Below, one piece after another: positions 7,670-59,637 of a DNA stretch of 64,000 bases; position 1 is the stretch's first letter; each line of letters begins with the position of its first letter. A program made the position numbers and the translations under genes. The stretch lies in contig JAJDEA010000079.1 in the NCBI GenBank assembly GCA_029260035.1, forward strand, positions 4,803 through 68,802, in the 5' to 3' direction. The notes under the pieces were generated by a model that worked only from the letters and a program-made list of their open reading frames with translations, was not told the DNA's origin and ran no database searches. Origin of the DNA: Phycisphaerae bacterium. Its GTDB lineage: Bacteria; Planctomycetota; Phycisphaerae; UBA1845.

Positions 7670-7722
7670 ACGATGCGACTGGTGAGAGTCATAGGGACGA
7701 CACAAGGATGATGGAGGCAACG

Positions 7723-8019: not shown

Positions 8020-8020
8020 A

Positions 8021-8230: not shown

Positions 8231-8267
8231 ACGGAGATAGGCTGGACAGAATCGCGAGTAGAAATCC

Positions 8268-11736: not shown

Positions 11737-11783
11737 AATAACAAGGTTGTTCCGAACGGAACTCAATAGTTATCGCGGTGGAT

Positions 11784-20223: not shown

Positions 20224-20270
20224 AATAAAAAGGTTGTTCCGAACGGAACTCGACAGTTATCGCGGTGGAT

Positions 20271-20717
20271 ATGATGATCGCAAGCATAAGAACAGAACGA
20301 GGTTCCAGCACGCCCAAGCAAAGACAACGGCTTCATCAACTCAAGAGGCGGTTGGGTTGGACAGACGATCAGCTTCACGAAGCGATCGGCGCAGTGAGTA
20401 CAAAGGTTCTGTCCGCCGCCGACGCGAGCCGTTGCATCCGTCGTCTAGGCGGTGGAGAGTTGCCGAATCCGCCGGGTCAAAAGCCAGCGCCTTATCAGGG
20501 GCGACGACAAAAGACCGACGCAACACGCATGATCGCTCCGGGACACAAGGAACAAATCGAGCGGTTGCTCTGTGAGCACTTCGGCGACTTGGAGTCCGGT
20601 TTGGCGTGGCTCGAAAAGAACTTTGACGTGAAGGATCCGCACGACCTTCTAACGGCAAAGCGGGCCGGTGAGGTGATCTATGTTCTCAAGGGGATGATCG
20701 AACGAACAAACGAATGA
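20271..20717 (+). CDS. GemA/gp16-like small protein (copy 2), tentative
   Basis: ~90% identical to 11784-12230. Confidence 0.5.
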   Translation: MMIASIRTERGSSTPKQRQRLHQLKRRLGWTDDQLHEAIGAVSTKVLSAADASRCIRRLGGGELPNPPGQKPAPYQGRRQKTDATRMIAPGHKEQIERLLCEHFGDLESGLAWLEKNFDVKDPHDLLTAKRAGEVIYVLKGMIERTNE

Positions 20718-36140: not shown

Positions 36141-36215
<75 letters not shown>

Positions 36216-36507: not shown

Positions 36508-37326
36508 ATGAAAGATCCCCAATCGGACAAGTCATTCTCTGGGTCGATTCCCGAGCTATACGACACCTACCTCACCCCACTCATTTTCGAACCTTATGCT
36601 CAACACCTTGCACTGCGTGTGAGCGAGGAATCGGTATCGCGTGTGCTGGAGATTGCTGCCGGAACGGGTGTCGTCACTCGGGCGATGGTCGACGAGTTGG
36701 GACCAGGTGTGCCCATCTTTGCAACAGACCTTAATCAACCGATGCTGGACTATGGGGCTACGGTTCGGGCCGACCCGAACGTGGTTTGGCGACAAGCCGA
36801 TGCTCTGGCACTGCCTTTCGAGGACGAATCGTTTGATGCAGTCGTATGCCAGTTCGCCGTTATGTTTTTCCCGGATCGCGCGAAGGCTTACTCTGAGGCA
36901 CGTCGAGTGCTCAAACGAGGAGGACAATACCACTTTAACGTGTGGGACAACATTGAGGAAAACGAGTTTGCGGACACCGTAACGAACTCGCTCGCTGATG
37001 TGTTTCCAACTTCTCCGCCGCGCTTCCTCGCCAGAACACCGCATGGGTATTCCAATATCGACGAAATTGCATCCGATTTGAAAAAGGGTGGATTTACGGC
37101 AACGCCGAGTTTCGATACGGTGGAAGCACGAAGCAAGGCCTCACACCCATCGATTCCTGCAATTGCTTACTGCCAAGGAACGCCACTTCGCAACGAGATT
37201 GAAGCCCAAGATGCATCACTATTGGAGCATGCGACAGGCGTAGCGGCCTCTGCCATAGCGAAGCATTTCGGAACGGGAGTTGTGGACGGCAAGATTCAGG
37301 CTCATGTCATATCGATCCGAGCCTAG
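36508..37326 (+). CDS. Class I SAM-dependent methyltransferase
   Basis: Motif I VLEIAAGTGVVT, acidic DLNQPML, motif LKRGGQYHF. Confidence 0.7.
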   Translation: MKDPQSDKSFSGSIPELYDTYLTPLIFEPYAQHLALRVSEESVSRVLEIAAGTGVVTRAMVDELGPGVPIFATDLNQPMLDYGATVRADPNVVWRQADALALPFEDESFDAVVCQFAVMFFPDRAKAYSEARRVLKRGGQYHFNVWDNIEENEFADTVTNSLADVFPTSPPRFLARTPHGYSNIDEIASDLKKGGFTATPSFDTVEARSKASHPSIPAIAYCQGTPLRNEIEAQDASLLEHATGVAASAIAKHFGTGVVDGKIQAHVISIRA

Positions 37327-37539
37327 CCACCCTGACGTCAGATGCCCCTGTTCGCACTGGACCTATTCAAACTCGAAGAGCTTCAGGCAGTATTTCTTCC
37401 ATGCCCAGCAACGCTTTCTAGCGTCAGAAGGCAACCACTGGACACATTATGAGTTCTTGGGGTAGTATCAATCGACTCAAGATGGATTATGCCTCTGGTC
37501 GGTTCGAGGTGCATAAGCCGTCTGCGAGAGAGCATGTAC

Positions 37540-37612
37540 GCGGGCGTAGCTCAATTGGTAGAGCATCAGCCTTCCAAGCTGAATGTTGACGGTTCGAGTC
37601 CGTTCGCCCGCT
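37540..37612 (+). tRNA. tRNA-Gly (anticodon TCC)
   Basis: GCGGGCG-TA-GCTC-AATTGGTA-GAGC-A-TCAGC-CTTCCAA-GCTGA-ATGTT-GACGG-TTCGAGT-CCGTT-CGCCCGC-T. Confidence 0.85.
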
Positions 37613-38001
37613 TTGTTGTTCAGCGTCGTTTGTCCTGCATATCGCCGCTTTTTCTAGGGTAGAACACGCTCCCGGCGCTGGCGTGGTTTGCCGAGGTTGA
37701 CCGCACGACGGTGTATCACTTCGCGCCGTTTCGCGCGCCAACTGCGGAGGTGTCTGGCGCTCTCGATTTTCATCAGTTTTGCCATAAGTTCCCGTCGCAG
37801 TTTCAATTCCATCGAGAACAGGTCATGATGAGGAAAGACTAGTATAAACATTGGCACCACGTTTGGGGCAGGTCAACATGATGGAGACATCGGTGTATCT
37901 TAAGGACTGATATCGGTATAGGAGTTAGAATCATAGAGAATGGAATGCGGTTCTTGCCATGCAAGTAATCGCACGATTGGCCTATCTGTTACTCACGATT
38001 C

Positions 38002-38754
38002 ATGTTTGATCTGCGAAGCATCTCGAAACGATATGACGCGACCGAGGCGGTGCGCGCAATCGACCTGGTGGTCGAGCCGGAAAAGACCACCGTGCTCATC
38101 GGCCCGAGCGGCTGTGGAAAGTCCACGCTATTGCGTTTGATGAATGGGCTGATTCGTCCCGACGCCGGAAGCGTTCAATTCGAAGGCGAGACCTTGTTAC
38201 CCGAAAACGCCATGCAGCTGCGCCGCAAGATGGGCTACGTCATCCAGGACGGCGGACTATTCCCCCATCTGACCGGCCGCGACAACGCCGCACTGGTCGC
38301 GCGCCATCTTGGATGGGATGCAAAACGAATCACTGCTCGACTTGACGAACTGATCGAGCTGACCCATTTCCCGGCTGACGGGCTCGATCGCTATCCAGCA
38401 CAGCTCTCCGGCGGCCAGCGCCAGCGCGTCAGCCTCATGCGAGCCTTGATGCTTGATCCGGACGTGCTGCTGATGGACGAACCACTGGGCGCTCTTGACC
38501 CCATGATCCGCAGCAACCTTCAGGCGGAGCTTCGTACGATCTACCGAGCGCTCGGAAAGACCGTCGTCATGGTTACCCACGATCTGGGCGAGGCCGGTTT
38601 CTTCGGCGATACGATCGTCCTGATGCGCGAGGGCCGGATCGTGCAAGTCGGCCCATTCGGCGACCTGCTCAATTCCCCAGCCGAGGCATTTGTTACGGAG
38701 TTTGTCAATGCACAGCGGGGCCTGCTGGGAGTCTCAGAGGAGGCAGCGCAGTGA
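38002..38754 (+). CDS. Quaternary-amine (betaine/osmoprotectant-type) ABC transporter ATP-binding protein
   Basis: Walker A GPSGCGKST. Signature LSGGQRQRV. Walker B LLMDEP. 4-bp overlap with the next gene. Confidence 0.85.
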   Translation: MFDLRSISKRYDATEAVRAIDLVVEPEKTTVLIGPSGCGKSTLLRLMNGLIRPDAGSVQFEGETLLPENAMQLRRKMGYVIQDGGLFPHLTGRDNAALVARHLGWDAKRITARLDELIELTHFPADGLDRYPAQLSGGQRQRVSLMRALMLDPDVLLMDEPLGALDPMIRSNLQAELRTIYRALGKTVVMVTHDLGEAGFFGDTIVLMREGRIVQVGPFGDLLNSPAEAFVTEFVNAQRGLLGVSEEAAQ

Positions 38755-40268
38755 CCTGGCTATGTCGCATACCGCTGCTTGTAGGCCTGGCACTTGTGCC
38801 GCCGGGCCTTGCCGACGAATCGCCCTCGATGCGCACTGGGTCGAAGGCGTTCACGGAATCCCTGATCCTTGCGGAGATTGTCGCCCACCTGGCGGATAAC
38901 GAAGGACTTGAAGTGGAGCACGTTAATGGGCTGGGTGGCACGCGGTTGCTTTGGGAGGCGCTTTTGGCGGGCCAGATCGACATCTACCCTGAGTACACCG
39001 GCACAATGACCGAAGAGATCTTCGCCGGACAGGGCATTCACGGCATCGCGGCACTCCGCACGAAGCTCGCCGAGTACGGTCTCAAGATGACCGATCCGAT
39101 CGGCGTCAACAACACATATGTCATCGGCATGAAAGAGGAGCTTGCAGCCAGGCTCAGCATCCGCACAATAAGCGACCTGCGTGAACATCCCGATCTGACG
39201 CTACGATTCAGCAATGAATTCATGAAGCGTGCGGATGGCTGGGGCGCACTAGCGCAACGCTATCAACTGCCACACCGGGACGTCCGAGGGTTGGAGCACG
39301 CTCTGGCCTACGAGGCACTCGACAAGGGTGTGATTCAAGTCACCGATCTTTATGCGACCGACGCGAAGATTCGTAAGCTCCAATTGCGCCGGCTTCAAGA
39401 CAACCGCAATCATTTCCCGGAGTACCACGCAGTTTTTGTCTACCGCGCGGAGCTGGAGCAGCGGGCACCGGCTCTCGTTGCCGCACTCCACTCACTGGAG
39501 GCGGCCATCGACGACACGGCAATGACAAACATGAACGCGCGGGTCGAGCTCGTTGGCCTCAGCGAAAGCCAGGTTGCCGCGGATTTCCTCGCGGAGGCGC
39601 GCGGAATCCAGTCACGCGTTCGAGAACAGAGCGTCGTCCGCGACATCGCTCGCTATACGCTGGAGCATCTCCACATGGTGGCAGTCTCGCTCACAGCTGC
39701 CATGTTAATTGCGATACCGCTTGGCATCGTGGCAGCCCGCAAGGCCCGGTTCGCACAGCCGATCTTGGGCGTCGTGGGTATCATTCAGACGGTTCCCTCC
39801 ATCGCACTGCTGGTGCTTCTGATCCGGCCGATAAGCTACTTCTCCGACGACCTCGGCTATCCACAGGCGGTCGTAGCGCTCTTCCTCTACTCTCTCCTGC
39901 CAATCGTACGAAACACCTATACTGGTTTGCGCGGAATCTCCCCGCATTTGCATGAATCTGCTGTTGCTCTCGGCCTTCCACCGTGGGTCCGCCTGTGGCG
40001 CATCGAGCTGCCGCTCGCGTCGAGAATGATCCTGGCGGGGGTAAAAACGGCTACTGTGATGAACGTCGGCTTCGCGACGCTCGGCGGATTCATCGGCGCT
40101 GGAGGCTATGGTGAGCCGATTTTCGCCGGAATCCGCCTGAACGACTACGGTGTAATCCTCCAGGGTGCCGTGCCTGCGGCTGTGTTGGCGTTAATTGTAC
40201 AGGGTTTGTTCGAGGTGGCCGAGCGTGTTATAGTGCCTAAGGGATTGCGGCTGAAATCGGGCGCGTAG
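38751..40268 (+). CDS. Fused substrate-binding domain + permease of a quaternary-amine ABC transporter (OpuC/ProWX/EgtU-like family)
   Basis: N-terminal signal plus a type-I betaine-binding-like domain (KAFTESLILAEIVAHL...IDIYPEYTGT). C-terminal 5-6 TM permease with an EAA-like region. Confidence 0.8.
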   Translation: MTWLCRIPLLVGLALVPPGLADESPSMRTGSKAFTESLILAEIVAHLADNEGLEVEHVNGLGGTRLLWEALLAGQIDIYPEYTGTMTEEIFAGQGIHGIAALRTKLAEYGLKMTDPIGVNNTYVIGMKEELAARLSIRTISDLREHPDLTLRFSNEFMKRADGWGALAQRYQLPHRDVRGLEHALAYEALDKGVIQVTDLYATDAKIRKLQLRRLQDNRNHFPEYHAVFVYRAELEQRAPALVAALHSLEAAIDDTAMTNMNARVELVGLSESQVAADFLAEARGIQSRVREQSVVRDIARYTLEHLHMVAVSLTAAMLIAIPLGIVAARKARFAQPILGVVGIIQTVPSIALLVLLIRPISYFSDDLGYPQAVVALFLYSLLPIVRNTYTGLRGISPHLHESAVALGLPPWVRLWRIELPLASRMILAGVKTATVMNVGFATLGGFIGAGGYGEPIFAGIRLNDYGVILQGAVPAAVLALIVQGLFEVAERVIVPKGLRLKSGA

Positions 40269-40305
40269 TAAACCAAGGCCGTTCGCGCTTACCTGAACCG
40301 GATCA

Positions 40306-41283
40306 ATGACGATGCACAAAAGCCAAACCGATCTCTCGGTGCATGATTTTGCACCGAGCACGGAGACGATGAGGGACGACGTATTGAATGGCCTCTCTCG
40401 AAGCCCGAAAGAGCTGCCAAGCCAATACTTATACGACGAGCACGGAGCCAAGCTATTCGAGCAAATCTGCGAGACTGAAGATTACTACCTGACTCGCACC
40501 GAGCAAGGCATACTTCGCCACAACATGGACGCTATCGCGAAATCGGTCGGACCCGACGCACTCGTGATTGAGCCGGGCAGCGGGAGCGGCCTAAAAACCC
40601 GCATGTTGTTGAACGGCCTGGACAATCCTGTCGGTTACGTTCCGGTCGACGTAGCCAAAGATCAATTGGCGCGATTCGCAACGAACGTCGATCGCGAATT
40701 TCCGGAGCTCGAAGTCAAGCCGGTATGCGCAGATTTCACGGACGATTACGAAGTGCCCGCGTGTGACGATGCAGAACGCTCGCGGTTGTGTTATTTTCCG
40801 GGGTCTACGATTGGAAACTTCAAACCCAATGTGGCCATCGATGTGCTGAATCACCTTGCCGAGCTGTGCGACGACGACGGAGGTGTGTTGATCGGCGTGG
40901 ACCTGAAGAAAGATCGCGAAACACTCGAAGCCGCCTACGACGATTCGCAGAACGTCTCGCGCAAGTTTGCACTCAACTACCTCGCTCGGCTCAACCGCGA
41001 ACTGGACGCCGACTTTCAAATCGAGCAGTTTGACTACGAAGCGCCCTACAACGAATCTCTGGGTCGAATTGAAATGGCCCTGGTTAGTTCGCGCGACCAA
41101 GTTGTCGGTATCAACGGTTCGCACGTGCGGTTCAACGACGGTGAGCGAGTCCACACGGAGTACTCTTATAAGTACACGCTAGCCGGATTTGCCGCGCTTG
41201 CTGAGAAAGCCAACCTCAAAGTTGAACAGACGTGGACCGATTCCGAAGGGTTATTCAGCGTTCAATATCTAGAACCACGTTAG
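40306..41283 (+). CDS. egtD: L-histidine N-alpha-methyltransferase EgtD-like (hercynine synthase family)
   Basis: 325 aa. QYLYDEHGAKLFEQICETEDYYLTRTEQGIL and VIEPGSGSGLKT are characteristic of EgtD (Methyltransf_33). No EgtB-like gene nearby. Confidence 0.7.
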   Translation: MTMHKSQTDLSVHDFAPSTETMRDDVLNGLSRSPKELPSQYLYDEHGAKLFEQICETEDYYLTRTEQGILRHNMDAIAKSVGPDALVIEPGSGSGLKTRMLLNGLDNPVGYVPVDVAKDQLARFATNVDREFPELEVKPVCADFTDDYEVPACDDAERSRLCYFPGSTIGNFKPNVAIDVLNHLAELCDDDGGVLIGVDLKKDRETLEAAYDDSQNVSRKFALNYLARLNRELDADFQIEQFDYEAPYNESLGRIEMALVSSRDQVVGINGSHVRFNDGERVHTEYSYKYTLAGFAALAEKANLKVEQTWTDSEGLFSVQYLEPR

Positions 41284-41391: not shown

Positions 41392-42183
41392 ATGAGTTCT
41401 ACTGAACGAACCATGTTGGAACGAACCATGACACGCATTCTAGTTGTCCTTTTTTCGGTACTTGTTCTTGGGGGAGCCGTCAGCCCATGCCCGGCGGAAT
41501 CTGCGCCATCGACCGGTGTCGCATTTGACCACAGTGCGTTTGACAAGATTCTTCGACAGGAAGTTCGCAACGAGTTAGTCGATTACTACGCGATCCGGGA
41601 CCGCCATGCGGCGAACCTCGATTCCTATCTGGACCAACTAGCCGAATTCAACCCGGACACGCTGTCGCGAAACGAGCAACTCGCCTTCTACTTAAACATG
41701 TACAATGCAACGATGATTCGCGCGATCGCCAAACGTTTCAGCAAGGGGTACAAGACATCGGAATGGGGTTACAAAATATTCAAGGAAAAGCTTGTACGCT
41801 TGAATGGCAAGTCAATCACGCTAGACGATGTTGAACACAAAATTGTTCGCCCTCGTTTCAAGGATCCGCGAATTCACGCAGCACTTGTGTGCGGTGCGCG
41901 GTCATGCCCGCCATTGCTTTCGAGAGCTTTTCGAGGAGACGATTTGGATACGGTCCTTGACGCCAACATGAAGCGATTTATTAATGACCCCAATCGAAAT
42001 CAAATCGATGTAGCGAATCGAAAGCTGAAATTATCAAAGATCTTCAAATGGTACAGTGAAGATTTTGGCGGCAAGGAAGGTCTGGCCAAGTATGTGGATC
42101 AGTATCACGACGCCGATGTGGCCGAATTCAACCTCAGCTATCTGCCCTACTCATGGGACTTGAACATTATCGAAAAGAGCTAA
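41392..42183 (+). CDS. DUF547-domain protein (secreted)
   Basis: Signal peptide. ...FYLNMYNATMIRAI...PRIHAALVCGARSCPPL is typical of DUF547. Confidence 0.55.
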   Translation: MSSTERTMLERTMTRILVVLFSVLVLGGAVSPCPAESAPSTGVAFDHSAFDKILRQEVRNELVDYYAIRDRHAANLDSYLDQLAEFNPDTLSRNEQLAFYLNMYNATMIRAIAKRFSKGYKTSEWGYKIFKEKLVRLNGKSITLDDVEHKIVRPRFKDPRIHAALVCGARSCPPLLSRAFRGDDLDTVLDANMKRFINDPNRNQIDVANRKLKLSKIFKWYSEDFGGKEGLAKYVDQYHDADVAEFNLSYLPYSWDLNIIEKS

Positions 42184-42309: not shown

Positions 42310-43032
42310 TCAGTTAAGTTCGCCAATTCGACCAGCAGAATCCGACTCAGTCATGGCATCCAACGCACGCCCGACATCCAAACTCCTGTGTTGTTCGTTG
42401 AGCGTATGGATGAAATCCTCAAACTCCCTCAGCCTTCTCTTGGCTAATTCCCGCACAAACTCGAACCGAAAACCGTCGCTCAGGCGAGCCGACCAGAATT
42501 GGTATTCCTTTCGTCGCTCCCAATTATCGATGAGGGCTTGAACGCCTTTCCCTTCCGCAGCGCCTTTCCGAATGAATGACCAAAGAGAGGTCAAACCGAA
42601 TTCCTCAAGGTTGTCAGCTTCCATTACGACCTGCGCCTCAATCGTGGCATCATTTCGTGTATCCAATTGCCGAATGGCGTCGGCTGCGAGTTTGACCGTC
42701 TCTCCCGGAATGATTCCGTTCAGCCCGGCTACCATCATCTGAACGCTTGTCTCCCGATGAGAAGCATCCAAAGGCCGAACCAACACATCGATCAACGCCT
42801 GTTCGCCGTTGCTCACGCGAGTAGCCCATGCAGCATCATGATAAAGGGAAGCAGCAAGAATTGCGGCGTTATCCGGCGATAGGTTTTCAATTTCCGAAGC
42901 GCTGGCGATCCCGAGGGCAGCTGTTGCGACGCGGAGGGTATGTTCCCATAGAAAAACATCCTCAACGCCGTGCTCATTCAGGATCACGAGGTCCTGTCGA
43001 GCGCGACCTATCATCGCATCCCGCTGCTTCAT
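42310..43032 (-). CDS. HD-domain phosphohydrolase-like protein
   Basis: H...HD pattern (WEHTLRVA...SLYHDAAW). Confidence 0.5.
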   Translation of the reverse strand: MKQRDAMIGRARQDLVILNEHGVEDVFLWEHTLRVATAALGIASASEIENLSPDNAAILAASLYHDAAWATRVSNGEQALIDVLVRPLDASHRETSVQMMVAGLNGIIPGETVKLAADAIRQLDTRNDATIEAQVVMEADNLEEFGLTSLWSFIRKGAAEGKGVQALIDNWERRKEYQFWSARLSDGFRFEFVRELAKRRLREFEDFIHTLNEQHRSLDVGRALDAMTESDSAGRIGELN

Positions 43033-43433: not shown

Positions 43434-44579
43434 CTATTCAAGAACTTCGTAATAGCAATTACGTTTTTTCGCCGCCCAGCCTGCATCCTCAATCGCGCTG
43501 CGGATTTCCTGCTCGGTAAGCTGAAAAGTTGTTCCCGCCGCAGAAACGACGTTTTCCTCCATCATCACCGAACCCATATCATTCGCACCATAGAAGAGAG
43601 CCAGCTGGCCAATCTTGACACCCTGAGTCACCCAGCTTGACTGAATGTTCACAATGTTGTCCAGATATATGCGTGCAAGGGCCGTCATTTTCAGATACTC
43701 ATTCGCATCCGCAAGAACAAGGTGTTCGCCATCCGGAGGCCCGGCGTAGTCTGGCGCAAACTGACCAACTCTTCCCAAGGGCGTATCTCCAGGCTGAAAT
43801 GTCCAGCTTATGTAGGCGGTGAATCCGCCTGTTTCATCCTGCAAATCACGAATTCGACAAAGATGTTCAATCCGATCTTCGATCGTTTCAACATGGCCGA
43901 ACATCATCGTAATGCTCGTTTTCATGCCGATCTTGTGCGCTTCCCTCATCACATGGAGATACTCATCAGCTGTCGTCTTGCCCTGTGCGATTTTTTTCCG
44001 GACACGATCGACAAGGATTTCCGCCCCGCCGCCGGGAATCGTATCAAGTCCCGCCTCCTGCAAACGAAGCAGGATATCCCGAATACTCATACCGAATTCC
44101 AGTTGGAACGCATGAATCTCCGGCGGACTGAAAGCATGGATGTGGATGCCGGGGAAATTCTTCTTAATGAATCTCAAGAGGTCAAGGTACCACTCAAACG
44201 GAATCAACTCCGCCGGAACCAACCCGCCTTGCATGAGCACTTGCGTTCCACCGATCGCCTTAAGCTCTTCAATCTTCTGCCCGATTTCGTCCAATGTCAG
44301 CACATAGCCGGAAGGCAAATCCTTCCTGCCTGAATTCATACCAGGTGGGTCAGCCTTGAAATTGCAGAATATACACTTGGCCGTGCAGTAGTTCGCGTAA
44401 TTGATATTGCGGTCCACTACATAGGTTCGATATGGCTCTGGGTGCAGACGCGTTGTCACCAAGTGGGCTTGCTTGCCCAGCTCGTGAATTGAACACTCTC
44501 TATACATGCTCAAGGCGTCAGCATTGCTAAGGCGTCTGCTGCCCAGCTTGCCCGAATTGTTGGCAGGCGCAATCGTCAT
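43434..44579 (-). CDS. Futalosine-pathway radical-SAM enzyme (MqnE/MqnC family)
   Basis: CTAKCIFCNF (CxxxCxxC). CofH/MqnC/MqnE-like length (381 aa). 4-bp overlap with the upstream mqnA/mqnD-like gene. Confidence 0.7.
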   Translation of the reverse strand: MTIAPANNSGKLGSRRLSNADALSMYRECSIHELGKQAHLVTTRLHPEPYRTYVVDRNINYANYCTAKCIFCNFKADPPGMNSGRKDLPSGYVLTLDEIGQKIEELKAIGGTQVLMQGGLVPAELIPFEWYLDLLRFIKKNFPGIHIHAFSPPEIHAFQLEFGMSIRDILLRLQEAGLDTIPGGGAEILVDRVRKKIAQGKTTADEYLHVMREAHKIGMKTSITMMFGHVETIEDRIEHLCRIRDLQDETGGFTAYISWTFQPGDTPLGRVGQFAPDYAGPPDGEHLVLADANEYLKMTALARIYLDNIVNIQSSWVTQGVKIGQLALFYGANDMGSVMMEENVVSAAGTTFQLTEQEIRSAIEDAGWAAKKRNCYYEVLE

Positions 44580-45376
44580 GCGAAGATCAACTCCTTATTG
44601 ACTGTCACGATGTCATGTTTGCGCGCCAAGTCGAGGAACATGCCCAGTCCTTGCCGCTGCCTGTCACCCAAGAAAAACTTGAGTCGTGTCGTTAGATATC
44701 GAGTGGCTAAGGTAACGGGCCAGCCCATGCCGGGACCAAAATCGGCAGCGATCATCCTGGCAGTCTTCACACCCAGGTCGCGAGCGGCTGACAATCGAGG
44801 CGCAAGATCGGAAACATCCAGGCTCCGATTGGAAGCCCAAACAGCAAAGACAAATGGAAGCGACGTCAGAGATTTCCAAGCCGACCCAAGGTCTGTCTCA
44901 ATTTCAAATCCTGTAGGTCTATTGGTCACCACTTTGTCGCCAATCAAGAGAACAGCCTCACAGTCGTTCAGATTCTCGACCTGGCTTGCAGGAAGTATGT
45001 TCAAATCACGTCCGTACACCTCATGCCAAATGATCCGCGCTAGCGCAACAGATGTGTGCGAGTCGCCGTCCACATGGAGTGTTTGAATGTGCTCCGGTGC
45101 AACGCGAGAGAAAACGCGTACAGTGAACGTCTCCCCGTCGCACCCTATGCACGCATCCGAAACGATTTGCCAATCTCGCCCCTCGCACGCCAAGTCGATC
45201 ACGGGGACAAGCGCAGCTTCGACCGTCTGCTGATCGAGCAACGCCGGCAATCGAGCCGGAACATCATAAAACAACGAGACATCAGTCTGAACGTCCAAAC
45301 CCGCCGTCAGCGGCTTGGCGTTCAGAAAGGAAACCGCCCCAAGGCGCCATGCAGGCATTGTAAGATTCTCAATCAA
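44576..45376 (-). CDS. MqnA/MqnD-family menaquinone (futalosine pathway) biosynthesis protein
   Basis: 266 aa. LGAVSFLNAKPL is an N-terminal motif typical of the MqnA/MqnD (VitK2_biosynth) fold. Confidence 0.55.
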   Translation of the reverse strand: MIENLTMPAWRLGAVSFLNAKPLTAGLDVQTDVSLFYDVPARLPALLDQQTVEAALVPVIDLACEGRDWQIVSDACIGCDGETFTVRVFSRVAPEHIQTLHVDGDSHTSVALARIIWHEVYGRDLNILPASQVENLNDCEAVLLIGDKVVTNRPTGFEIETDLGSAWKSLTSLPFVFAVWASNRSLDVSDLAPRLSAARDLGVKTARMIAADFGPGMGWPVTLATRYLTTRLKFFLGDRQRQGLGMFLDLARKHDIVTVNKELIFA

Positions 45377-49623: not shown

Positions 49624-50652
49624 TCAATCGACGTGGTGAGAGTCGCGCACCTTCGACGGCACCGCGTTCAGGTCCCAAATGATCCCGACCTTGGACATCA
49701 ACCAAAGCGCATAATACGTCAAGTCGATCTCCCACCAATAGAACCCCTGACGCACCGAACCGGGATAATAATGGTGGTTGTTGTGCCAACCCTCGCCGAA
49801 GGTCAGAAGTGCCAACAGCAGGCTGTTCCGGCTTTCGTCCTTACTCTTGTAACGCTTCTTGCCCCAAAGGTGCGTCAATGAGTTGATGGTATACGTCGCA
49901 TGGGAGCAAACAACTGTCGAAATGAAGAACCCCCAGATGAGCATTTGTCCACCAGTGGTGTCCCAACCTCGTGACTGAAGCCAACTGCCGAGAGCGAAGA
50001 TCAAGCACGCTTCGATAAATGGCACGGTGTTGTCGAATCGGTTCAGGAACCGAAGTTCCGGAAACTTCATGAGATCGGGTACGGCTTTCTCGTCAAAGCC
50101 ATACGCGCCCTTCGAGGTGATCCAGCCAAAGTGGCTCCAATACAGGCCATGTCGAATGGGCGAATGTACATCGACTTCCTCATCGGAATGACGGTGGTGA
50201 TGTCGATGCCTCGCCGCCCACCAAATCGGCCCGCGTTGTACGCACGAACTCCCCATGACGGCAAAGATGAATTGCGCCACACGCGAGGTTTTGAATGCGC
50301 GATGCGAAAAGTATCGATGATAAAACGCCGTAACCGAAAACATGTGAAAAACATACAGGCCGGCAGCGACAGCCACGGCGATCGGACTCCACCCCACCCA
50401 GATGACCCCAAAGCACATGAGGTGTATCGCGACAAATGGAAGCAATCGGACCCAGTCCACCGCATAGACATCTGCCTTTTCGCCTTCGGTGTACTCCTTC
50501 GCCGAATTGTCAAACCAGCAGCCAACCGAATGGACCAGCGACGCAAACCGACCGACCGGTTTGGGCTGGACGTCTTCGGTTTTCTGGGTTGTTGGTCTCG
50601 CCGGTTCAGCGATATCCAAGCCGGGCATAATCGTTGAGTCTGAAAGGCTCAT
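49624..50652 (-). CDS. Membrane fatty-acid (acyl-CoA/acyl-lipid delta-9 type) desaturase
   Basis: Three His boxes: HRYFSHRAF, HRHHHRHSD, HNNHH. Confidence 0.85.
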   Translation of the reverse strand: MSLSDSTIMPGLDIAEPARPTTQKTEDVQPKPVGRFASLVHSVGCWFDNSAKEYTEGEKADVYAVDWVRLLPFVAIHLMCFGVIWVGWSPIAVAVAAGLYVFHMFSVTAFYHRYFSHRAFKTSRVAQFIFAVMGSSCVQRGPIWWAARHRHHHRHSDEEVDVHSPIRHGLYWSHFGWITSKGAYGFDEKAVPDLMKFPELRFLNRFDNTVPFIEACLIFALGSWLQSRGWDTTGGQMLIWGFFISTVVCSHATYTINSLTHLWGKKRYKSKDESRNSLLLALLTFGEGWHNNHHYYPGSVRQGFYWWEIDLTYYALWLMSKVGIIWDLNAVPSKVRDSHHVD

Positions 50653-52967: not shown

Positions 52968-54065
52968 TCAGTTCGGCTGACCAACATCCAGAACCAAACC
53001 TCGATGATCAGAGCCTGGAATGTCAACTGACCTGCATCGCAATATAGAAATGGACGGACTCACATAGTACCGGTCGATACGCACACCTGGGAAAATGCTG
53101 AACATACCCCTTGTCGGCCAGGTCGCTCGCCATGCAGTCCCCACGGCTTCTTGCGCGTCAACCAGTCCGTTGCGCAGCATCTGTCGATGCATTCGGCTAG
53201 CTTCTGTATAGTTGAAGTCACCGCCGAGGATGATCGGTAACGGGTCACCCGCAACGAAATCGCGCAAAGAGACAAACTGCCGTCTCATTTCCACCACGGT
53301 ATCAAGCACCGGAGGCAATAAGTGGACATTGTAAATGGCAAATCGCTCTTGACCGCACTTTGTGACGATGCGCTTCGCGGGATGCGTACCGGGGCCCATC
53401 ATGACGTTGCCAACCGGCTCTTCGGCGAAAGCAATCTTGGAATAAATCGCAGATCCGTGCGGATCCAGCTTGGGTTGCCCTGCCCAATGCGGATAGGTTT
53501 CCGAGAGCGACTTCATCATGGCATCGTGCCAGAAATGGGTATACTCTTGAAGCAGGAGCATATCGGGAGACGCGTCACGAATCACATGGAGAACTTCTTG
53601 GAAACGTCGGTTATCGTATCGCAGATTGATCGTCATAAGCCGAAAACTGTCCGCCTCTACTGAACGAGAGGCTGCCAGAGCTTTGGCGCCATCCAAGTGA
53701 GGGAAGAAAGTCAGGCCTATCAACGGTAGCGTCGCAATTGCCAGACGCGACCGTTTGAGCGCCAGTGCAATCGCCCCCATGACAACAAACGCAAGACCAA
53801 CGTGCCATAGAAACGTTCGGCAGAGAAACGCGGCGTACCAAAAAGCGACATAGACATCCCCTGTTCGATCCAAATCGCCCGGCCCAAGAAACGCGTACAC
53901 AGCTTGAAGGTAACCCAATAATATTGCCAGGAATAAGGCACTTGGAATTAGGCGCCGCTTACTTGTCGTCGTATTGCTATCGAGCATTTGGATTCGCCGA
54001 AGCGGCGATCTTTGAATAAGGAGTGTAGGTGCGTAATCCGTTACGAGCCATGACGGTCCTTCCAT
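52968..54065 (-). CDS. Endonuclease/exonuclease/phosphatase (EEP) family membrane-anchored protein
   Basis: N-terminal TM helices. LMTINLRYDN...MLLLQEY...GSDHRGLVLDV are EEP catalytic motifs. Confidence 0.65.
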   Translation of the reverse strand: MEGPSWLVTDYAPTLLIQRSPLRRIQMLDSNTTTSKRRLIPSALFLAILLGYLQAVYAFLGPGDLDRTGDVYVAFWYAAFLCRTFLWHVGLAFVVMGAIALALKRSRLAIATLPLIGLTFFPHLDGAKALAASRSVEADSFRLMTINLRYDNRRFQEVLHVIRDASPDMLLLQEYTHFWHDAMMKSLSETYPHWAGQPKLDPHGSAIYSKIAFAEEPVGNVMMGPGTHPAKRIVTKCGQERFAIYNVHLLPPVLDTVVEMRRQFVSLRDFVAGDPLPIILGGDFNYTEASRMHRQMLRNGLVDAQEAVGTAWRATWPTRGMFSIFPGVRIDRYYVSPSISILRCRSVDIPGSDHRGLVLDVGQPN

Positions 54066-56830
54066 GCCTGAATGATTTGCAGCGCTTCCAGCGGAGTTAT
54101 TTTATCAGGGTCAAGAAGCCGCAATTCGTCACGGATTTCATCGCCGGGATCGCGGAAGAGCTTTAATTGCGCGTCGTCTTTGGTCTTTTCTTTGGCAAAT
54201 TGCGGAGTGCGAGACTCGCGCTCGAAGCCTCGCTGAAGCTCTTCCAGCACTTCTCGGCTTCGTCGAATCACAGGCTTGGGGATTCCCGCGAGCTTCGCGA
54301 CGTGAACGCCGTAGCTCTTGCTGGCGCCGCCCTCGACAATCCGATGCAGAAAGACAATACCCTCATCCTGATCCTCAACGACTCTGGATTCGCGAACGGC
54401 TACATTGTAATTGCGAACGCCTTTCAGAAGCGACTCGAGTTCAGCCATTTCATGATAATGGGTCGCAACAAACGAACGGCACTTTGTTTGATTCGCGAGA
54501 TGCTCCGTAATAGCCCATGCAAGCGACAAGCCGTCGAATGTGCTCGTTCCTCTTCCAAGCTCATCAATAATGACCAACGATCGATCGGTCGCATTGTGGA
54601 GTATATTTGCCGCCTCCGTCATTTCGACCATGAACGTCGATTGCCCTCGCATCAATTCGTCCGCAGCACCGACACGCGCAAAGATTCGATCCACCGGCGT
54701 AAACTGCATGCGCCGCGCAGGGACGAACGAGCCGGTTTGCGCAAGCAGTGTCATGAGCGCGACCTGCCGAATGTAGGTACTCTTACCTGCCATGTTTGGC
54801 CCGGTGATGACGAAGACACGAGAGCTTTCGTCGAGCATCCGGGTATCGTTCGGGACAAACTGATCGCCAAGCGCCTGATCGAGCACGACATGGCGACCTT
54901 CGTCAATGTCGAGGACCAACCCATCAACGATTTCCGGGCGAACGAATCGACGATCGACTGCCAGCTCAGCAAAACAACATAAACAATCCAGTCGTCCGAT
55001 CGCGCCCGCGATGCGCAATAGTTCCTGAATGTTCTTGGCTACGTCCGCACACACACGCTCGAACAATTGTCTTTCCAGTTCGTTCGCGCGATCGGACGCC
55101 GTCAACACTTCAGATTCGTGTGTCTTCAATTCCTCGGTAATGTATCGCTCCGCATTCTTTACGGTTTGCTTGCGGATGTAGTCGGGCGGGATGTCAACCT
55201 GCGCGCTGTTGGAAACTTCGATGTAGTAGCCGAACACGCGGTGAAATCCGACTTTGAGCGTCGAGACGCCAATGCGTTCGCTTTCTTTTCGTTGGAATTC
55301 GGTAAGCCAGGCTTGCCCGTCATGCGCGATAGATCGCAGCCTATCCAATTCCTCATTAAAACCATCTGCAATAACGCCCCCATCGCGAAGCGTGGGTGCA
55401 GGTTCCTCACGAATCGAACGTTTGAGCAGGGCGATTAGCGCATCTGGACAGAGAAGCCCAGCAGCAACCGCTTCCACCATGCGCGATGAAGTTTGCCTCA
55501 ACTCGCCAGCCATGGCTGGGATTTGATCAAGCGTTCGGCCAAGCGACGCCAGGTCGCGCGGACCGGCTCGCCCCAACGCAACGCGACTGGCGATGCGCTC
55601 AACGTCTGCAAGTGTCTTAAGACTCTTGTGCATGCGCGATCGCAACGGCTCGTTCTCAACGAAAAACCCAACCGCTTCCTGTCGAAGTTCGATCTCAGCA
55701 ACGTCGATCAACGGAGTGCGAATCCAATGCAATAGCGTGCGCGACCCGAGAGGGTGCACCGTTCGATCAATAGCCGCGAGCATTGAGCCTTCGCGCGAGC
55801 CGCTGCGTAGCGTTCGCTCGATCTCCAGCGCTCGGCCACTGCTATGGTCGATCTGCAAGTAATGCGTAACGGCTCGCCTTGCGATGGATGCGATGTGCGC
55901 AAGCGACGTTCGCTGTGTTTCCTGTAAGTACTGGATCAAACAGCCCGCTGCACACAGGGAAGCGTTCATCTCGTCAAAGCCGAAACCCGAAAGCGTCGCT
56001 ACGTCGAAATGCTCCAACAACGACTTCTCAGCCTGGTAAGCGGAAAACTCATGCAATGGCCGAGATGTCACGGTCACGTCTTGGAAGACGCGCAGCTCCT
56101 CGACAATTTTATTCGCGATGCCCCCTCGATCATCATCAATCACAACTTCGGCAGGCCGATTGCGCACCAGCTCATCAAGAATGCTGTCTTTGGAAACATC
56201 GATCGCTTCAAATCGGCCGCTTGATAGTTCGACAAATGCAAGCCCAACCGCGTCGCCTTGCGCAAAAACAGATGCCAGAATATTGGCATCTTTATCGGAG
56301 AGTAACGTATCTTCAGTAAGGGTCCCTGCTGTCACAATGCGAACGACATCGCGCTTCACAACACCTTTGGCTTGTTTCGCATCTTCCAACTGCTCGGAGA
56401 TCGCAACCTTGTGCCCCGCATCAACGAGCTTCTTCAAGTAGGCGTCGAGCGCGTGATAGGGAATACCGGCCAACGGGATCGGGTGGTCGCCCTTGGAGCG
56501 AGCCGTCAAAGCAATACCCAGCACTTCGGAACAGAGTACTGCATCTTCGTAGAACGTCTCGTAGAAATCGCCCATCCTGAAAAGCAAAACCGCATCACCG
56601 ACACGTTTTTTCTGCTCCACATATTGGCGCATAGCGGGAGTGAGCGAGTCGGCCTTGACGGAAGCGGCTCGTATGGGGGCGTCTTTCTTGGTGGCGCTCA
56701 CGGTAGGCAAACGTTGCTGCTCCTTCTGCCGTTTGGTTGAACGAAGCCGAAAGCCATTCACTCCGGTGGCATATCCAGTCCGTCCGTCTCGGCAACATAC
56801 TAGCGATATTGTATCGTTGACGCCCAACAC
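54041..56830 (-). CDS. mutS: DNA mismatch repair protein MutS (possibly with an N-terminal extension; alternative start near 56632)
   Basis: TPAMRQYVEQK...FYETFYEDA is the MutS N-domain. Walker A GPNMAGKSTYIRQ. ...STFMVEM... Confidence 0.9.
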   Translation of the reverse strand: MLGVNDTISLVCCRDGRTGYATGVNGFRLRSTKRQKEQQRLPTVSATKKDAPIRAASVKADSLTPAMRQYVEQKKRVGDAVLLFRMGDFYETFYEDAVLCSEVLGIALTARSKGDHPIPLAGIPYHALDAYLKKLVDAGHKVAISEQLEDAKQAKGVVKRDVVRIVTAGTLTEDTLLSDKDANILASVFAQGDAVGLAFVELSSGRFEAIDVSKDSILDELVRNRPAEVVIDDDRGGIANKIVEELRVFQDVTVTSRPLHEFSAYQAEKSLLEHFDVATLSGFGFDEMNASLCAAGCLIQYLQETQRTSLAHIASIARRAVTHYLQIDHSSGRALEIERTLRSGSREGSMLAAIDRTVHPLGSRTLLHWIRTPLIDVAEIELRQEAVGFFVENEPLRSRMHKSLKTLADVERIASRVALGRAGPRDLASLGRTLDQIPAMAGELRQTSSRMVEAVAAGLLCPDALIALLKRSIREEPAPTLRDGGVIADGFNEELDRLRSIAHDGQAWLTEFQRKESERIGVSTLKVGFHRVFGYYIEVSNSAQVDIPPDYIRKQTVKNAERYITEELKTHESEVLTASDRANELERQLFERVCADVAKNIQELLRIAGAIGRLDCLCCFAELAVDRRFVRPEIVDGLVLDIDEGRHVVLDQALGDQFVPNDTRMLDESSRVFVITGPNMAGKSTYIRQVALMTLLAQTGSFVPARRMQFTPVDRIFARVGAADELMRGQSTFMVEMTEAANILHNATDRSLVIIDELGRGTSTFDGLSLAWAITEHLANQTKCRSFVATHYHEMAELESLLKGVRNYNVAVRESRVVEDQDEGIVFLHRIVEGGASKSYGVHVAKLAGIPKPVIRRSREVLEELQRGFERESRTPQFAKEKTKDDAQLKLFRDPGDEIRDELRLLDPDKITPLEALQIIQAWKDRHGS

Positions 56831-56884
56831 AATCGACCTTTTCGCCTACCAGGGATCCGTGGCCCCAAGCCGACCGTACTTCCC

Positions 56885-58063
56885 TTGGTGATCCGGCCTA
56901 TGTGGAATAGAATCACGGTAATGTCTGATTGCAGGGAAAAAGTGGTCGTCGCCATGAGCGGCGGGGTGGATTCAAGCGTCGCAGCGTGTTTGCTTCAAGA
57001 ACAAGGCTATGACGTGATGGGACTATTCATGCGCGTCGGAGTTGACCCGCCTGAGCCAACAGGCGACGCCGATTCAGCGCCAAAGCGCAGAGAGAAACAG
57101 GGGTGTTGCAGCGCTAGCGATGCACATGACGCTAAATTTGTCGCCGGCTTGCTCGGCGTACCATTCTACGCACTCAATTTCCAGGAAGACTTTGATCGCA
57201 TCATCGACTATTTCGCAGACGAATACGCCCGTGGGCGAACCCCAAATCCCTGCGTCGTTTGCAACGATCGTCTAAAATTTGGAAAAATATGCGATTACGC
57301 AGATGCCGTTGGCGCCAAGTACATCGCGACCGGCCACTATGCGCGAGTCGGATCGGAAAATGGAAAAAATATCCTGATGCGCGCTCGAGATTCGAGTAAA
57401 GATCAATCGTATGTGCTTTTTGGAATCGATCCGAAAGTTCTCGACCGCTTGCTTTTTCCGTTGGGCGACTTGCTTAAGAGCGAGGTGCGAGCCATTGCCG
57501 ACGCAAATGCCCTTCCAAACCACGACAAGCCCGATTCCGTCGAGATTTGTTTTGTTCCGGACAACGACTACGCCCGCGTCGTTCGCGAGCGTAGGCCCGA
57601 TGCGTTCGTACCGGGCGATGTCGTCAGCGCCGATGGCCGAGTCCTTGGGCAGCATGACGGAATTGCGAATTACACGATCGGTCAACGGCGAGGTTTAGGA
57701 ATATCCGGCCCCAAACCGATTTACGTCACTCAGCTAAACATCGTGGACAACACCGTAGGCGTTGCAGAAGTCGACGGGCTCTTCAGCGGCTCGCTTTTGG
57801 CTGACAAAGTGAGCTTTTTCGTAAATGAACGTCGTTCACCGTTTCGTGCGCTTGTAAAAATACGATACCTGCACAAGGCGACCCCCGCGATGATCCACCC
57901 TTTGAAAGCTGGGCGAGTGCGAGTCGAATTCGACGAACCACAGCGCGCAGTCACGCCTGGCCAGGCAGTAGTTTTTTATGATGGCGATGTCGTTGTGGGC
58001 GGGGGTTGGATCGAAAAAGCGGAGCCCGCTTCGATTGAAGCGAACTCCGCTACATCTTCTTGA
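56885..58063 (+). CDS. mnmA: tRNA-specific 2-thiouridylase MnmA
   Basis: PP-loop VVVAMSGGVDSSVAACLL. MnmA length and catalytic Cys context. The start may be the internal Met at ~56921. Confidence 0.85.
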   Translation: MVIRPMWNRITVMSDCREKVVVAMSGGVDSSVAACLLQEQGYDVMGLFMRVGVDPPEPTGDADSAPKRREKQGCCSASDAHDAKFVAGLLGVPFYALNFQEDFDRIIDYFADEYARGRTPNPCVVCNDRLKFGKICDYADAVGAKYIATGHYARVGSENGKNILMRARDSSKDQSYVLFGIDPKVLDRLLFPLGDLLKSEVRAIADANALPNHDKPDSVEICFVPDNDYARVVRERRPDAFVPGDVVSADGRVLGQHDGIANYTIGQRRGLGISGPKPIYVTQLNIVDNTVGVAEVDGLFSGSLLADKVSFFVNERRSPFRALVKIRYLHKATPAMIHPLKAGRVRVEFDEPQRAVTPGQAVVFYDGDVVVGGGWIEKAEPASIEANSATSS

Positions 58064-58089
58064 TTACTTAGCTACCTACCACCGTCAGC

Positions 58090-59637
58090 TTATACGATCG
58101 CTCGCACGGCCTGCTCAGCAGCCTGCGCTGCTTTCTCCGATTGTACGGATTGCTTGGCGGCTTCGATTCGAGCGGCTTGCGCAGCAGCTTGAGCAGTTTC
58201 CGCTTGCTGCACTGCAGGTGATTCGGTCAAGCCGAATTGCTCTTCCAATTCATGGACGAGGACCGCAAGGTTCTGCTCTTTTTGGCCGGTAGGCGTCATC
58301 CATCGCGCGGGTTCATTGTTTTGCAGAAGTTTGGAGATTCGCCGGCAGGCCAGGATCACGGTCGAGTGATTCTTGTTGCCCATAAACCGACCGATCTCCG
58401 GGAAACTCATCGCCGTATGCTTCCTCGCAAGATACATGGCGATTCCACGAGCTAATGCTATCGTCCTTGATTTTCGTGAAGTGTGGAGATCGGCCGGTGT
58501 TAGGCCGAAGAAAATCGCGACAACACTCTCGATGTCGGAGAGCATGACAACCGGCGCGGTCTGGCGAACTAGGTCACGGATAGCGCGCTCTGCCAATGAA
58601 AGCGTCATCGGCGAACCCATGACCTGAGCCTGGGCGACAACTTTCAAAAGCGCGCCTTCCAACTCACGGATGTTGGCTCGAAAATGCTCTGCGATATAGA
58701 GAATGACAGGCTCGGGAATGTCGACTTTCAATCGATCCGCTTTACGACGAAGAACTTCCGCCCGAACGCCGAAATCCGGCGAGTCGATGCGAACGACCAT
58801 GCCGGAGAGGAATCGGCTGACCAGCGATTCAGAAAAATGCCCGATCAGTTTCGGGTGCGCGTCGGAGGCAAGAACAATTTGCTTTCCGGCTGCGTCAATG
58901 GCCTTGAATGTGTTCAGAAATTCCTGCTGCGTGGCTCGCTTGTTTGCGAAGTAGTGGACGTCGTCGATAACGAGAAGATCTACATTACGATAGCGATTGC
59001 GAAACGCGTCCTCTTCATGCGCCTTGATGGCGTAAACATAATCGTTGGTGAATTCCTCGCCGGAGACGTAAACCCATCTCAGGTTCGGATTGGGTTCGCT
59101 GATTCCATTGCAAACGGCGTGCAGCAGATGTGTTTTTCCAAGCCCACAACCACCGTGAATAAAAAGCGGATTGTACATTGTGCCCGGGTTGTCAATAACA
59201 CTCTTGGCTGCTGCATGTGCGAGACGATTTGATGGTCCTACAACGAAATCATCCAATCGCCCTTTGAGTGACCGGGCTTGAGGCAGATCCATAGACCGTC
59301 GCTGAATCCGCGCAAGTCGCTCGGGATTGTTCGCAACAAAATCAACTTGCCGATCAGGCTGTTTCTTTCCAAGCCCTTTTGCAAGCTCTGGATCGATATC
59401 GAAACTAAGGGTGTAATCCTGGTCGCCCACTTCCCTGGCTGCTTCGATGATGGTCTCTGAAAAATGACGTTCGATCCATGCGCTGATAAAAGGATTGGGC
59501 GCGCTCACGCGAAGATAGTCTTCGGTGAATGAAAAGCGGATGGCATTTTTGAACCAAACATTGAATCGCTGTGGGCCTAGTTTGTCGGCGATACATGATT
59601 CGAGTTGCGAAACTACACCGTCGGCGCATGTGATCAC
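58090..59637 (-). CDS. dnaA: Chromosomal replication initiator DnaA
   Basis: AAA+ Walker A GGCGLGKTHLLHAVCNG. Walker B LVIDDVHYF. C-terminal DnaA-box-binding helix-turn-helix. Confidence 0.9.
   Translation of the reverse strand: MITCADGVVSQLESCIADKLGPQRFNVWFKNAIRFSFTEDYLRVSAPNPFISAWIERHFSETIIEAAREVGDQDYTLSFDIDPELAKGLGKKQPDRQVDFVANNPERLARIQRRSMDLPQARSLKGRLDDFVVGPSNRLAHAAAKSVIDNPGTMYNPLFIHGGCGLGKTHLLHAVCNGISEPNPNLRWVYVSGEEFTNDYVYAIKAHEEDAFRNRYRNVDLLVIDDVHYFANKRATQQEFLNTFKAIDAAGKQIVLASDAHPKLIGHFSESLVSRFLSGMVVRIDSPDFGVRAEVLRRKADRLKVDIPEPVILYIAEHFRANIRELEGALLKVVAQAQVMGSPMTLSLAERAIRDLVRQTAPVVMLSDIESVVAIFFGLTPADLHTSRKSRTIALARGIAMYLARKHTAMSFPEIGRFMGNKNHSTVILACRRISKLLQNNEPARWMTPTGQKEQNLAVLVHELEEQFGLTESPAVQQAETAQAAAQAARIEAAKQSVQSEKAAQAAEQAVRAIV

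Follow-up and report, generated by a model that had tools for sequence, protein, structure and literature searches.

The closest described relatives of the locus analyzed here are the ergothioneine importer EgtUV, the betaine-binding protein AfProX, and the biosynthetic clusters that combine the hercynine synthase EgtD with one of three hercynine-consuming enzymes, EgtB, MES or SenA. EgtUV is encoded by two genes, one for an ATPase and the other for a permease fused to an OpuAC-type substrate-binding domain (SBD), with the permease coming first, whereas AfProX is a free binding protein. To our knowledge, bacterial ergothioneine transport has so far been described only for EgtUV, in host-associated bacteria that do not produce the compound, and we know of no transporter tied to ergothioneine biosynthetic clusters and of no hercynine transporter. 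Here we describe a locus in a 64,000-nucleotide stretch of Phycisphaerae DNA (positions 4,803 to 68,802 of contig JAJDEA010000079.1, assembly GCA_029260035.1; hereafter, the window) in which genes for an ATPase, a fused SBD/permease and EgtD form one operon-like module, the cassette, with the following features:

38002–38754, + strand: ATPase gene, 250 aa (Pfam PF00005, 124 bits)
38751–40268, + strand: gene for the fused SBD/permease protein, 505 aa (PF04069, 177.8 bits; PF00528, 76.2 bits)
aa 3–21 of the fused protein, + strand: signal sequence (hydropathy)
aa 28–282 of the fused protein = 38832–39596, + strand: SBD (OpuAC, PF04069; Pfam)
aa 321–488 of the fused protein = 39711–40214, + strand: MetI-like permease domain (BPD_transp_1, PF00528; Pfam)
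40306–41283, + strand: egtD, 325 aa, predicted L-histidine N-alpha-trimethyltransferase (hercynine synthase; TIGR03438, PF10017)

The GTG start codon of the fused SBD/permease gene overlaps the ATPase stop codon by 4 bp, and 37 bp separate the fused gene from egtD. In public gene calls, egtD starts at 40312, two codons downstream of 40306, and the database protein P0001 is 100% identical to the window EgtD over 323 aa. The gene identities and coordinates given in a first-pass annotation of the window, which had been prepared from the sequence without database searches, proved exact when checked against open reading frames (ORFs), Pfam and TIGR03438, as did its observation that the domain order is the reverse of that in EgtUV: the window fusion is SBD-first, with a signal sequence.

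We propose, with moderate confidence, that the ligand of the importer is most likely hercynine, possibly ergothioneine or selenoneine, and that the module is a detached hercynine-synthesis and salvage piece of an ancestral MES cluster; hercynine is favored because it alone is common to all the genomic partners of the transporter. Under this scheme, EgtD would convert histidine and three molecules of S-adenosylmethionine (SAM) to hercynine (histidine betaine), whereas the ATPase and the fused SBD/permease would form an ABC importer for a betaine carrying an alpha-carboxylate, that is, hercynine and possibly its 2-thio and 2-seleno derivatives, ergothioneine and selenoneine. Through import, the cell would obtain or regain the very intermediate produced by EgtD, sparing three SAM per molecule, and both routes would feed one pool that, in the relatives, would be drawn upon by MES, EgtB or SenA. 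The module itself would be what remains of an ancestral ergothioneine cluster with the order MES-ATPase-SBD/permease-EgtD, from which MES has been separated or lost in the window. Pairs of biosynthesis and recapture systems include TeaABC with ectoine, GgtABCD with glucosylglycerol, and proVWX beside gsmt/sdmt in marine Synechococcus; the cassette would share with these the logic of an importer for the cell's own product, as a conceptual analogy only, the transporter families and the solutes being different. E. coli expressing MES makes efficient use of exogenous hercynine (PMC9516567), free hercynine is respired by marine anaerobes (bioRxiv 10.1101/2025.08.13.670108), and hercynine has been described as a marker of ergothioneine oxidation.

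The evidence for hercynine synthesis comes from comparison of the window EgtD with characterized members of the family. The protein passes the NCBI EgtD equivalog model TIGR03438 (366.6 bits, cut-off 290.9), scores 346.7 bits against PF10017, remains under the cut-off of the related EasF model, and matches EgtD in the PDB with an E-value of 2e-49. When aligned with EgtD of M. tuberculosis, it is identical in 9 of the 10 histidine-site residues (Y39, F47, Y56, T163, N166, Y206, M252, E282 and S284); the tenth, T213, is replaced by Ser, such that the hydroxyl is retained. Among these residues, E282 and M252 determine, as Vit and colleagues reportedly described in 2015, whether the enzyme is specific for histidine or for aromatic amino acids. 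In the M. tuberculosis enzyme, Y56, Y206 and S284 are ligands of the carboxylate, N166 is a ligand of the alpha-amino group, E282 lies on the imidazole side, and T213 positions an imidazole-bound water (PMC8593015). Given that the histidine-site residues are identical, with the T213S replacement keeping the hydroxyl, the window EgtD is, as far as can be judged from its sequence, a genuine histidine trimethyltransferase. The histidine-site residues are retained in all transporter-linked EgtDs included in our residue table.

The closest public relatives of the cassette come from metagenome-assembled genomes (MAGs) of Phycisphaerae and Planctomycetota, and the three-gene cassette is kept, with differing flanks, in 8 further related loci. 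The order and spacing of the three genes are the same in L007, L008/L002, L009/L005, L010 and L012 (EgtD 68–83% identical), and both flanks differ in each; the ATPases of the cassette relatives are 74–90% identical to that of the window. In L014 (EgtD 61% identical), a 1133-aa MES ends 34 bp before the ATPase gene (called genes). This protein combines the Molybdop_Fe4S4, Molybdopterin, Molydop_binding and Aminotran_5 domains and contains the N-terminal CxxCxxxC...C motif, the pyridoxal phosphate motif SGHK and the penultimate C-terminal Cys; homologues 73–75% identical to it are annotated from Calditrichaeota, and the MES fusions of the relatives range from 1133 to 1174 aa. In L013 (EgtD 64% identical), the MES fusion directly precedes EgtD, without the transporter. 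The relatives thus carry the same enzyme pair as the MES-EgtD pathway of Caldithrix abyssi, with matching MES architecture and Cys motifs, whereas the report of that pathway mentions no ABC transporter in the clusters (PMC9516567) and the window has no MES within its 64 kb.

Searches for MES homologues connected MES with two relatives, OFTM285 and GCA_044232415.1, but not with the MAG from which the window derives. In the MAG OFTM285, the MES protein P0141 is encoded on contig JAJDDR010000019.1 (L016), the last 60 bases of which encode MFELNDISKRYGSTVALRDV, the N-terminus of the ATPase, and another contig of the same MAG, JAJDDR010000341.1 (L010), begins at about residue 42 of the ATPase. Because one contig ends in the ATPase N-terminus and the other begins at residue ~42, the two abut inside the ATPase gene; the joined order is MES, ~500 bp, ATPase, SBD/permease, EgtD. 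In L017, where EgtD is 80.6% identical to that of the window, MES is located 4.4 kb upstream of the cassette. Altogether, co-encoding of MES and EgtD was encountered in L013, L014, L016+L010 and L017, and because MES adjoins the cassette in the last three, the ancestral arrangement in the window lineage is MES plus the cassette, the adjacency having been lost in the window, L007, L008, L009 and L012. Among the MES-less relatives of the window are the MAGs GCA_029260075.1, GCA_964651325.1, GCA_021604825.1 and Dive96_bin2.90.

Within the window, a Pfam scan of every ORF of at least ~170 aa in the 64 kb detected no FGE-sulfatase or DinB_2 domain protein (EgtB, OvoA or SenA), no EgtC- or EgtE-type protein, no rhodanese (EanB) and no fusion of molybdopterin and Aminotran_5 domains (MES), and a loose tblastn search of the same 64 kb detected no MES remnant; the window includes neither a canonical EgtB/EgtD cluster nor a MES-type cluster. 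The first-pass annotation had stated that no EgtB was nearby, and this is correct for the entire window. Its description of the EgtD as an orphan is misleading: it considered EgtB, EgtC, EgtE and OvoA, but the sulfur enzyme of this lineage is MES, which adjoins the cassette in the relatives. Among the best 120 of 5523 MES homologues, none except for L016 and L017 themselves was more than 77% identical to the MES of these two members of the window clade, and the MES of L016 was the only one at least 80% identical to that of L017; the single candidate at 77% stands alone and originates from a sample unrelated to these, the MES homologues P0130 and P0154 come from unrelated samples, and the EgtDs of the MES-less MAGs are present in the same database. 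These observations hint that MES has been lost from the window genome; MAG incompleteness and an unlinked EgtB or EanB are possible alternatives, as are sulfur steps encoded elsewhere, which the first-pass annotation had considered. The MES study counted ~80 genomes with EgtD but without EgtB or EanB, 55 of which co-encode EgtD with MES (PMC9516567), so that roughly 25 genomes with EgtD are left unexplained by that count.

A wider survey shows that the association extends beyond this lineage. A scan of metagenomic contigs with an alignment of nine transporter proteins yielded 80 loci with 46–67% identity, and in 17 of these, EgtD and/or EgtB/MES adjoin the transporter; among the 39 loci whose flanks extend for 1.5 kb or more on each side, 8 show this linkage. 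At least 10 arrangements were identified (A, ATPase; S, SBD/permease; D, EgtD; B, EgtB; M, MES): A-S-D, B-D-A-S, A-S-D-B, D-B-A-S, D-M-A-S, A-S-D-M, B..A-S-D, A-D-S and two convergent ones. When 690 neighboring ORFs from 89 loci were clustered all against all, EgtD was the most frequent recurrent neighbor of the transporter (21 of the 89 loci), with EgtB found in 10 and MES in 5. The sole other real recurrent family, an aldehyde dehydrogenase, is confined to one clade, and the remaining recurrent clusters were dismissed because their ORFs, shadow or fused, overlie the genes of the transporter; genes for ectoine, choline oxidation, glycine methylation or betaine catabolism were not recurrent among these neighbors. 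By a rough estimate rather than a computation, with roughly a dozen genes in the flanks and genomes of a few thousand genes, well under one such locus would be expected by chance.

Clusters of EgtB and EgtD with the same type of transporter are found in other lineages (L011, L022, L075, L086 and L097); in the three for which the EgtB equivalog score was measured (L011, L022 and L075), it is 577–616 against a cut-off of 360. In L011, a Verrucomicrobiae MAG, the order is EgtB (576.8), EgtD, ATPase, SBD/permease. In L041, EgtD (352 bits with the equivalog model) lies between the ATPase and permease genes and all other neighbors are unrelated, which makes this locus an independent module of EgtD plus transporter only. 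In L040, the EgtB-like gene (7194–8483) beside EgtD and the transporter is SenA (514.5, cut-off 420); SenB and SenC were not detected in the ~5 kb downstream of it. Thus, the transporter family is embedded in EgtB-EgtD and SenA clusters as well, whereas the window contains neither EgtB nor SenA. Because the linkage is both conserved and repeatedly reshuffled, the adjacency of EgtD and the transporter in the cassette exceeds chance, in support of the earlier suggestion that it concerns histidine-derived betaines. The sole element common to the partner enzymes, be it EgtB, MES, SenA or none, is hercynine, their substrate.

Several additional observations pertain to these loci and to the sulfur step. 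The ~4.4 kb between MES and the transporter genes in L017 (11601–15849) consists of small ORFs, including one for a PemK-family toxin, and may be a snapshot of a cluster in the process of splitting. A methyltransferase encoded in the window (36508–37326) was considered as a homologue of the methyltransferase that precedes MES in L017 and was rejected given that the two show no homology. The relative L015 (4706–7254) has EgtD with no transporter or MES nearby; an ArsR-type helix-turn-helix (HTH)-methyltransferase fusion and S-adenosylhomocysteine hydrolase are encoded ~3–5 kb upstream of that EgtD. In L011, egtD (10001–10897), located between egtB and the transporter genes, is split over three reading frames, which could reflect long-read indel errors or a pseudogene. 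The window also encodes an O2-dependent fatty-acid desaturase (49624–50652) and, beyond 54041–59637, di-haem cytochrome c peroxidases, which suggests an at least microaerobic physiology; a relevance to the loss of the oxygen-sensitive MES is speculative.

The architecture of the transporter is that of an importer. Hydropathy analysis of the fused protein reveals four strongly hydrophobic segments past residue 305, with space for a weaker fifth one, in keeping with a MetI-like core of five helices that begins on the outside; an extracytoplasmic location of the N-terminal binding domain is compatible with this pattern. The architecture is SBD-dependent and of type I, and therefore, import is expected. 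The best NCBIfam match of the ATPase is the ProV subfamily TIGR01186 (model positions 5–234 of 363, below the cut-off), and the protein consists of the nucleotide-binding domain alone: no CBS domain was matched by Pfam, and the C-terminal CBS module is lacking. In OpuA/ProU/OpuC-type systems, this module gates transport by ionic strength or cyclic di-AMP (c-di-AMP), and an ATPase with C-terminal tandem CBS domains, the hallmark of the osmoregulated ProU, OpuA and OpuC, is not what is encoded in the window. The compatible-solute role considered in the first-pass annotation finds no specific support here, given the ATPase without the CBS module and the lack of osmolyte genes recurring nearby. 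The transporter family is a large one: at E ≤ 1e-30 it comprises 1016 representatives, or about a thousand clusters at 50% identity, and most of the best 150 of these representatives are collinear fusions of ~500 aa. Three of the top representatives (P0241, P0242 and P0244) are 767–813 aa long, with the window fusion aligning to their C-terminal ~475 residues; these may be triple ATPase-SBD-permease fusions or else gene calls reading through the 4-bp overlap.

The binding pocket of the window SBD includes K32, F34, G62, G63, T64, Y82, T85, V119, N121, Y123, E156, R160, D162, Y201 and Y225. Mapped onto the EgtU residues described in PMC9732360 and PMC12922746, in the numbering of S. pneumoniae EgtU (SpEgtU), it compares as follows:

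Carboxylate clamp: SpEgtU K242/T296/R379, window K32/T85/R160, conserved
Triad: SpEgtU E375-R379-D381, window E156/R160/D162, conserved
Asn: SpEgtU N339, window N121, conserved
Aromatic cage: SpEgtU Y341/Y419/Y443, window Y123/Y201/Y225, conserved
Invariant ergothioneine determinant: SpEgtU G244, window F34, changed
First switch position: SpEgtU F293, window Y82, changed
Second switch position: SpEgtU Y337, window V119 (Phe in all 88 relatives), changed
Thione contact (PMC9732360): SpEgtU I243, window A33 (highly variable within the family), unconserved

The window SBD accordingly shares with EgtUV the clamp, the triad and the cage, but not the determinants of ergothioneine specificity, namely G244, the F293/Y337 switch and I243. 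Hence the earlier suggestion of an EgtUV-like SBD and ergothioneine uptake holds for the overall likeness to EgtUC, the ergothioneine-binding domain, but not for the published specificity residues. The pocket-lining V119 (39105–39107) is, among the family members examined, a feature of the window only.

The pocket is where the evidence weighs against hercynine or its derivatives as the ligand. Among the AfProX ligand-site residues reportedly listed by Schiefner and colleagues in 2004, K13, F15, G43-G44-T45, Y63 and T66 align directly with, and are identical to, K32, F34, G62-G63-T64, Y82 and T85 of the window SBD. Five more, Y111, E145, R149, Y190 and Y214, can be assigned from their spacing and from the comparison made in PMC9732360, such that the four-Tyr box, the carboxylate ligands K13/T66/R149 and F15 are all present; position 107, Phe in AfProX, is Val in the window and Phe in the relatives. 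Judged by these residues, the pocket is an AfProX-type glycine-betaine/proline-betaine site with a carboxylate clamp. When the N-lobe alone was used as a PDB query, AfProX came first (7e-12), ahead of SpEgtUC (2e-7) and H. pylori EgtUC (HpEgtUC; 6e-5). Furthermore, family members with linkage to EgtD have the same pocket as those without it, the latter accounting for ~80% of the loci, and a pocket signature that would separate the two was ruled out, as none exists. In SpEgtUC, the G244F substitution, which mimics the Phe of the window, lowered the affinity for ergothioneine 100-fold (PMC9732360). SpEgtUC also binds hercynine ~10,000-fold more weakly than ergothioneine, so that hercynine binding is not predicted by relatedness to EgtU. 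The AfProX-like pocket is the main evidence against an ergothioneine- or hercynine-specific ligand and conflicts with the genomic context.

The conflict is softened by two considerations: the G244F variant of SpEgtUC still binds ergothioneine, with a Ka of 2e5 per M (PMC9732360), and for a ligand without sulfur, one might expect a variable position 33 and a water/thione cavity occupied by Phe. The strongest competing explanation, which we nevertheless consider unlikely, is that the cassette encodes an AfProX-type osmoprotectant importer for glycine betaine or proline betaine that came to lie beside egtD through a stress regulon or the supply of methyl groups. In addition to the constellation of pocket residues, the closeness of the N-lobe and the prevalence of egtD-free loci with the same pocket, this explanation would account for the best NCBIfam match of the SBD, which is OsmF-like. 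Against it stand the recurrent neighbors, which are EgtD, EgtB, MES and SenA rather than genes for osmolytes or betaine catabolism, the existence of at least 10 independent gene orders, one of them with egtD inside the transporter operon, and an ATPase devoid of the CBS module that is typical of the osmoregulated ProV, OpuAA and OpuCA. The window SBD also differs from AfProX in being fused to the permease, in having V119 in place of F107 (Phe in the relatives) and N121 in place of D109, and in its context of histidine-betaine biosynthesis. A more far-reaching variant of our proposal, whereby this is the first dedicated hercynine importer family and, in the window lineage, hercynine is an end product or an exchanged metabolite such that the module functions independently of ergothioneine synthesis, appears doubtful to us. 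In this lineage, the cassette lacks a neighboring MES in five related MAGs, and the searches retrieved no lineage-matched MES for them.

An EgtUV-like function with specificity for ergothioneine, along with selenoneine, is improbable in our assessment; through such a transporter, producers would recapture the secreted product and the organism represented by the window would scavenge ergothioneine. The best PDB matches of the whole SBD are indeed EgtUC of S. pneumoniae and H. pylori (1.6e-34, compared to 3e-27 for AfProX and 3e-22 for OpuCC), and E156, R160, D162 and T64 are conserved. Moreover, HpEgtUC binds ergothioneine although its residues equivalent to F293, Y337 and G244 are Tyr, Phe and Ser (S297), respectively, and because the first two are Tyr and Phe, the F293/Y337 switch is dispensable for ergothioneine binding; the residual binding by G244F SpEgtUC points in the same direction. 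Yet, in the window, a bulky Phe replaces the small residue at this position (G244 in S. pneumoniae, S297 in H. pylori), the cage comprises four Tyr residues in contrast to F293 in SpEgtU and a Phe at the 419 position in H. pylori, and the equivalent of I243, the thione anchor of EgtU, is unconserved. The constant genomic partner, furthermore, is EgtD and not any one sulfur or selenium enzyme, and modules of EgtD plus transporter only are found in the window clade and in L041. EgtUV has been described in non-producers, whereas the family of the window transporter resides inside the biosynthetic clusters of producers. Finally, although ~80% of the transporter homologues have no egtD nearby, a coincidental adjacency of two unrelated functions is effectively refuted by the comparative data, that is, linkage with changing flanks in the window and 8 related loci, linkage in 17 of the 80 distant homologues from several lineages and in many gene orders, and the tight spacing of the three genes (4-bp overlap and 37-bp gap).

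Each of EgtD, MES, EgtB, SenA and EgtUV has been described before. By contrast, our search of open-access literature returned no report that an importer of reversed domain order with an AfProX-type pocket is systematically embedded in clusters for ergothioneine or selenoneine, and such embedding goes unmentioned in the papers on MES and EgtU. One widespread family of fused importers thus turns out to be repeatedly embedded with three unrelated hercynine-consuming chemistries, those of EgtB, MES and SenA, and gains a specific ligand hypothesis that is cheap to test. If hercynine or its derivatives are indeed the ligands, a salvage branch would be added to ergothioneine and selenoneine metabolism, an AfProX-like pocket could serve histidine betaines, such that the published EgtU-type specificity rules would have to be revised, and the transporter could become a tool for production strains, through hercynine feeding or by blocking re-uptake. 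The survey also flags genomes that encode EgtD and the importer without a recognizable sulfur step.

The cassette is surrounded by the following features:

36141–36215, − strand: tRNA-Pro(GGG), upstream of tRNA-Gly(TCC)
37540–37612, + strand: tRNA-Gly(TCC) (ARAGORN and Rfam)
37613–38001, + strand: intergenic stretch from tRNA-Gly(TCC) to the ATPase start, presumed promoter/leader
41392–42183: DUF547 gene, next after egtD (Pfam)
42310–43032, − strand: HD-domain gene, after the DUF547 gene (Pfam)

The DUF547 and HD proteins are not EgtB-, EgtC- or EgtE-like by Pfam, in agreement with the first-pass annotation; they are lineage-specific neighbors and were ruled out as pathway partners, being absent from the cassette flanks of every relative, where the flanking genes differ. 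Rfam identified no riboswitch around the cassette, and the intergenic stretch 37613–38001 contains no sigma70-like and no terminator-like site; no riboswitch, promoter or terminator signal around the operon rose above background, and the single match to the sigma70 consensus is located at 37439–37468, upstream of tRNA-Gly(TCC). The cassette begins 390 bp downstream of this tRNA gene, and the GC content at third codon positions (GC3) of the transporter genes is 0.70–0.71 compared to a local value of 0.58 ± 0.06, that is, about 2 standard deviations above it. The GC3 and the adjacent tRNA hint at rearrangement or acquisition at a tRNA site, although other, native-looking genes have equally high GC3.

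Elsewhere in the window, two diverged transposon-like copies (8268–12230 and 16749–20717) are ~85% identical at the nucleotide level along stretches of ~0.9 kb and ~2.1 kb; the module encodes an rve-integrase (781/783 aa), an AAA_22 ATPase (385 aa) and a 150-aa ORF, with several XRE/HTH regulator genes around. Menaquinone genes of the futalosine pathway, unrelated to the cassette, are located at 43434–45376 on the − strand and comprise mqnC (440 bits, cut-off 428) and a VitK2_biosynth (MqnA/D-like) gene. Finally, mutS (− strand), mnmA (+ strand) and dnaA (− strand) are clustered at 54041–59637.

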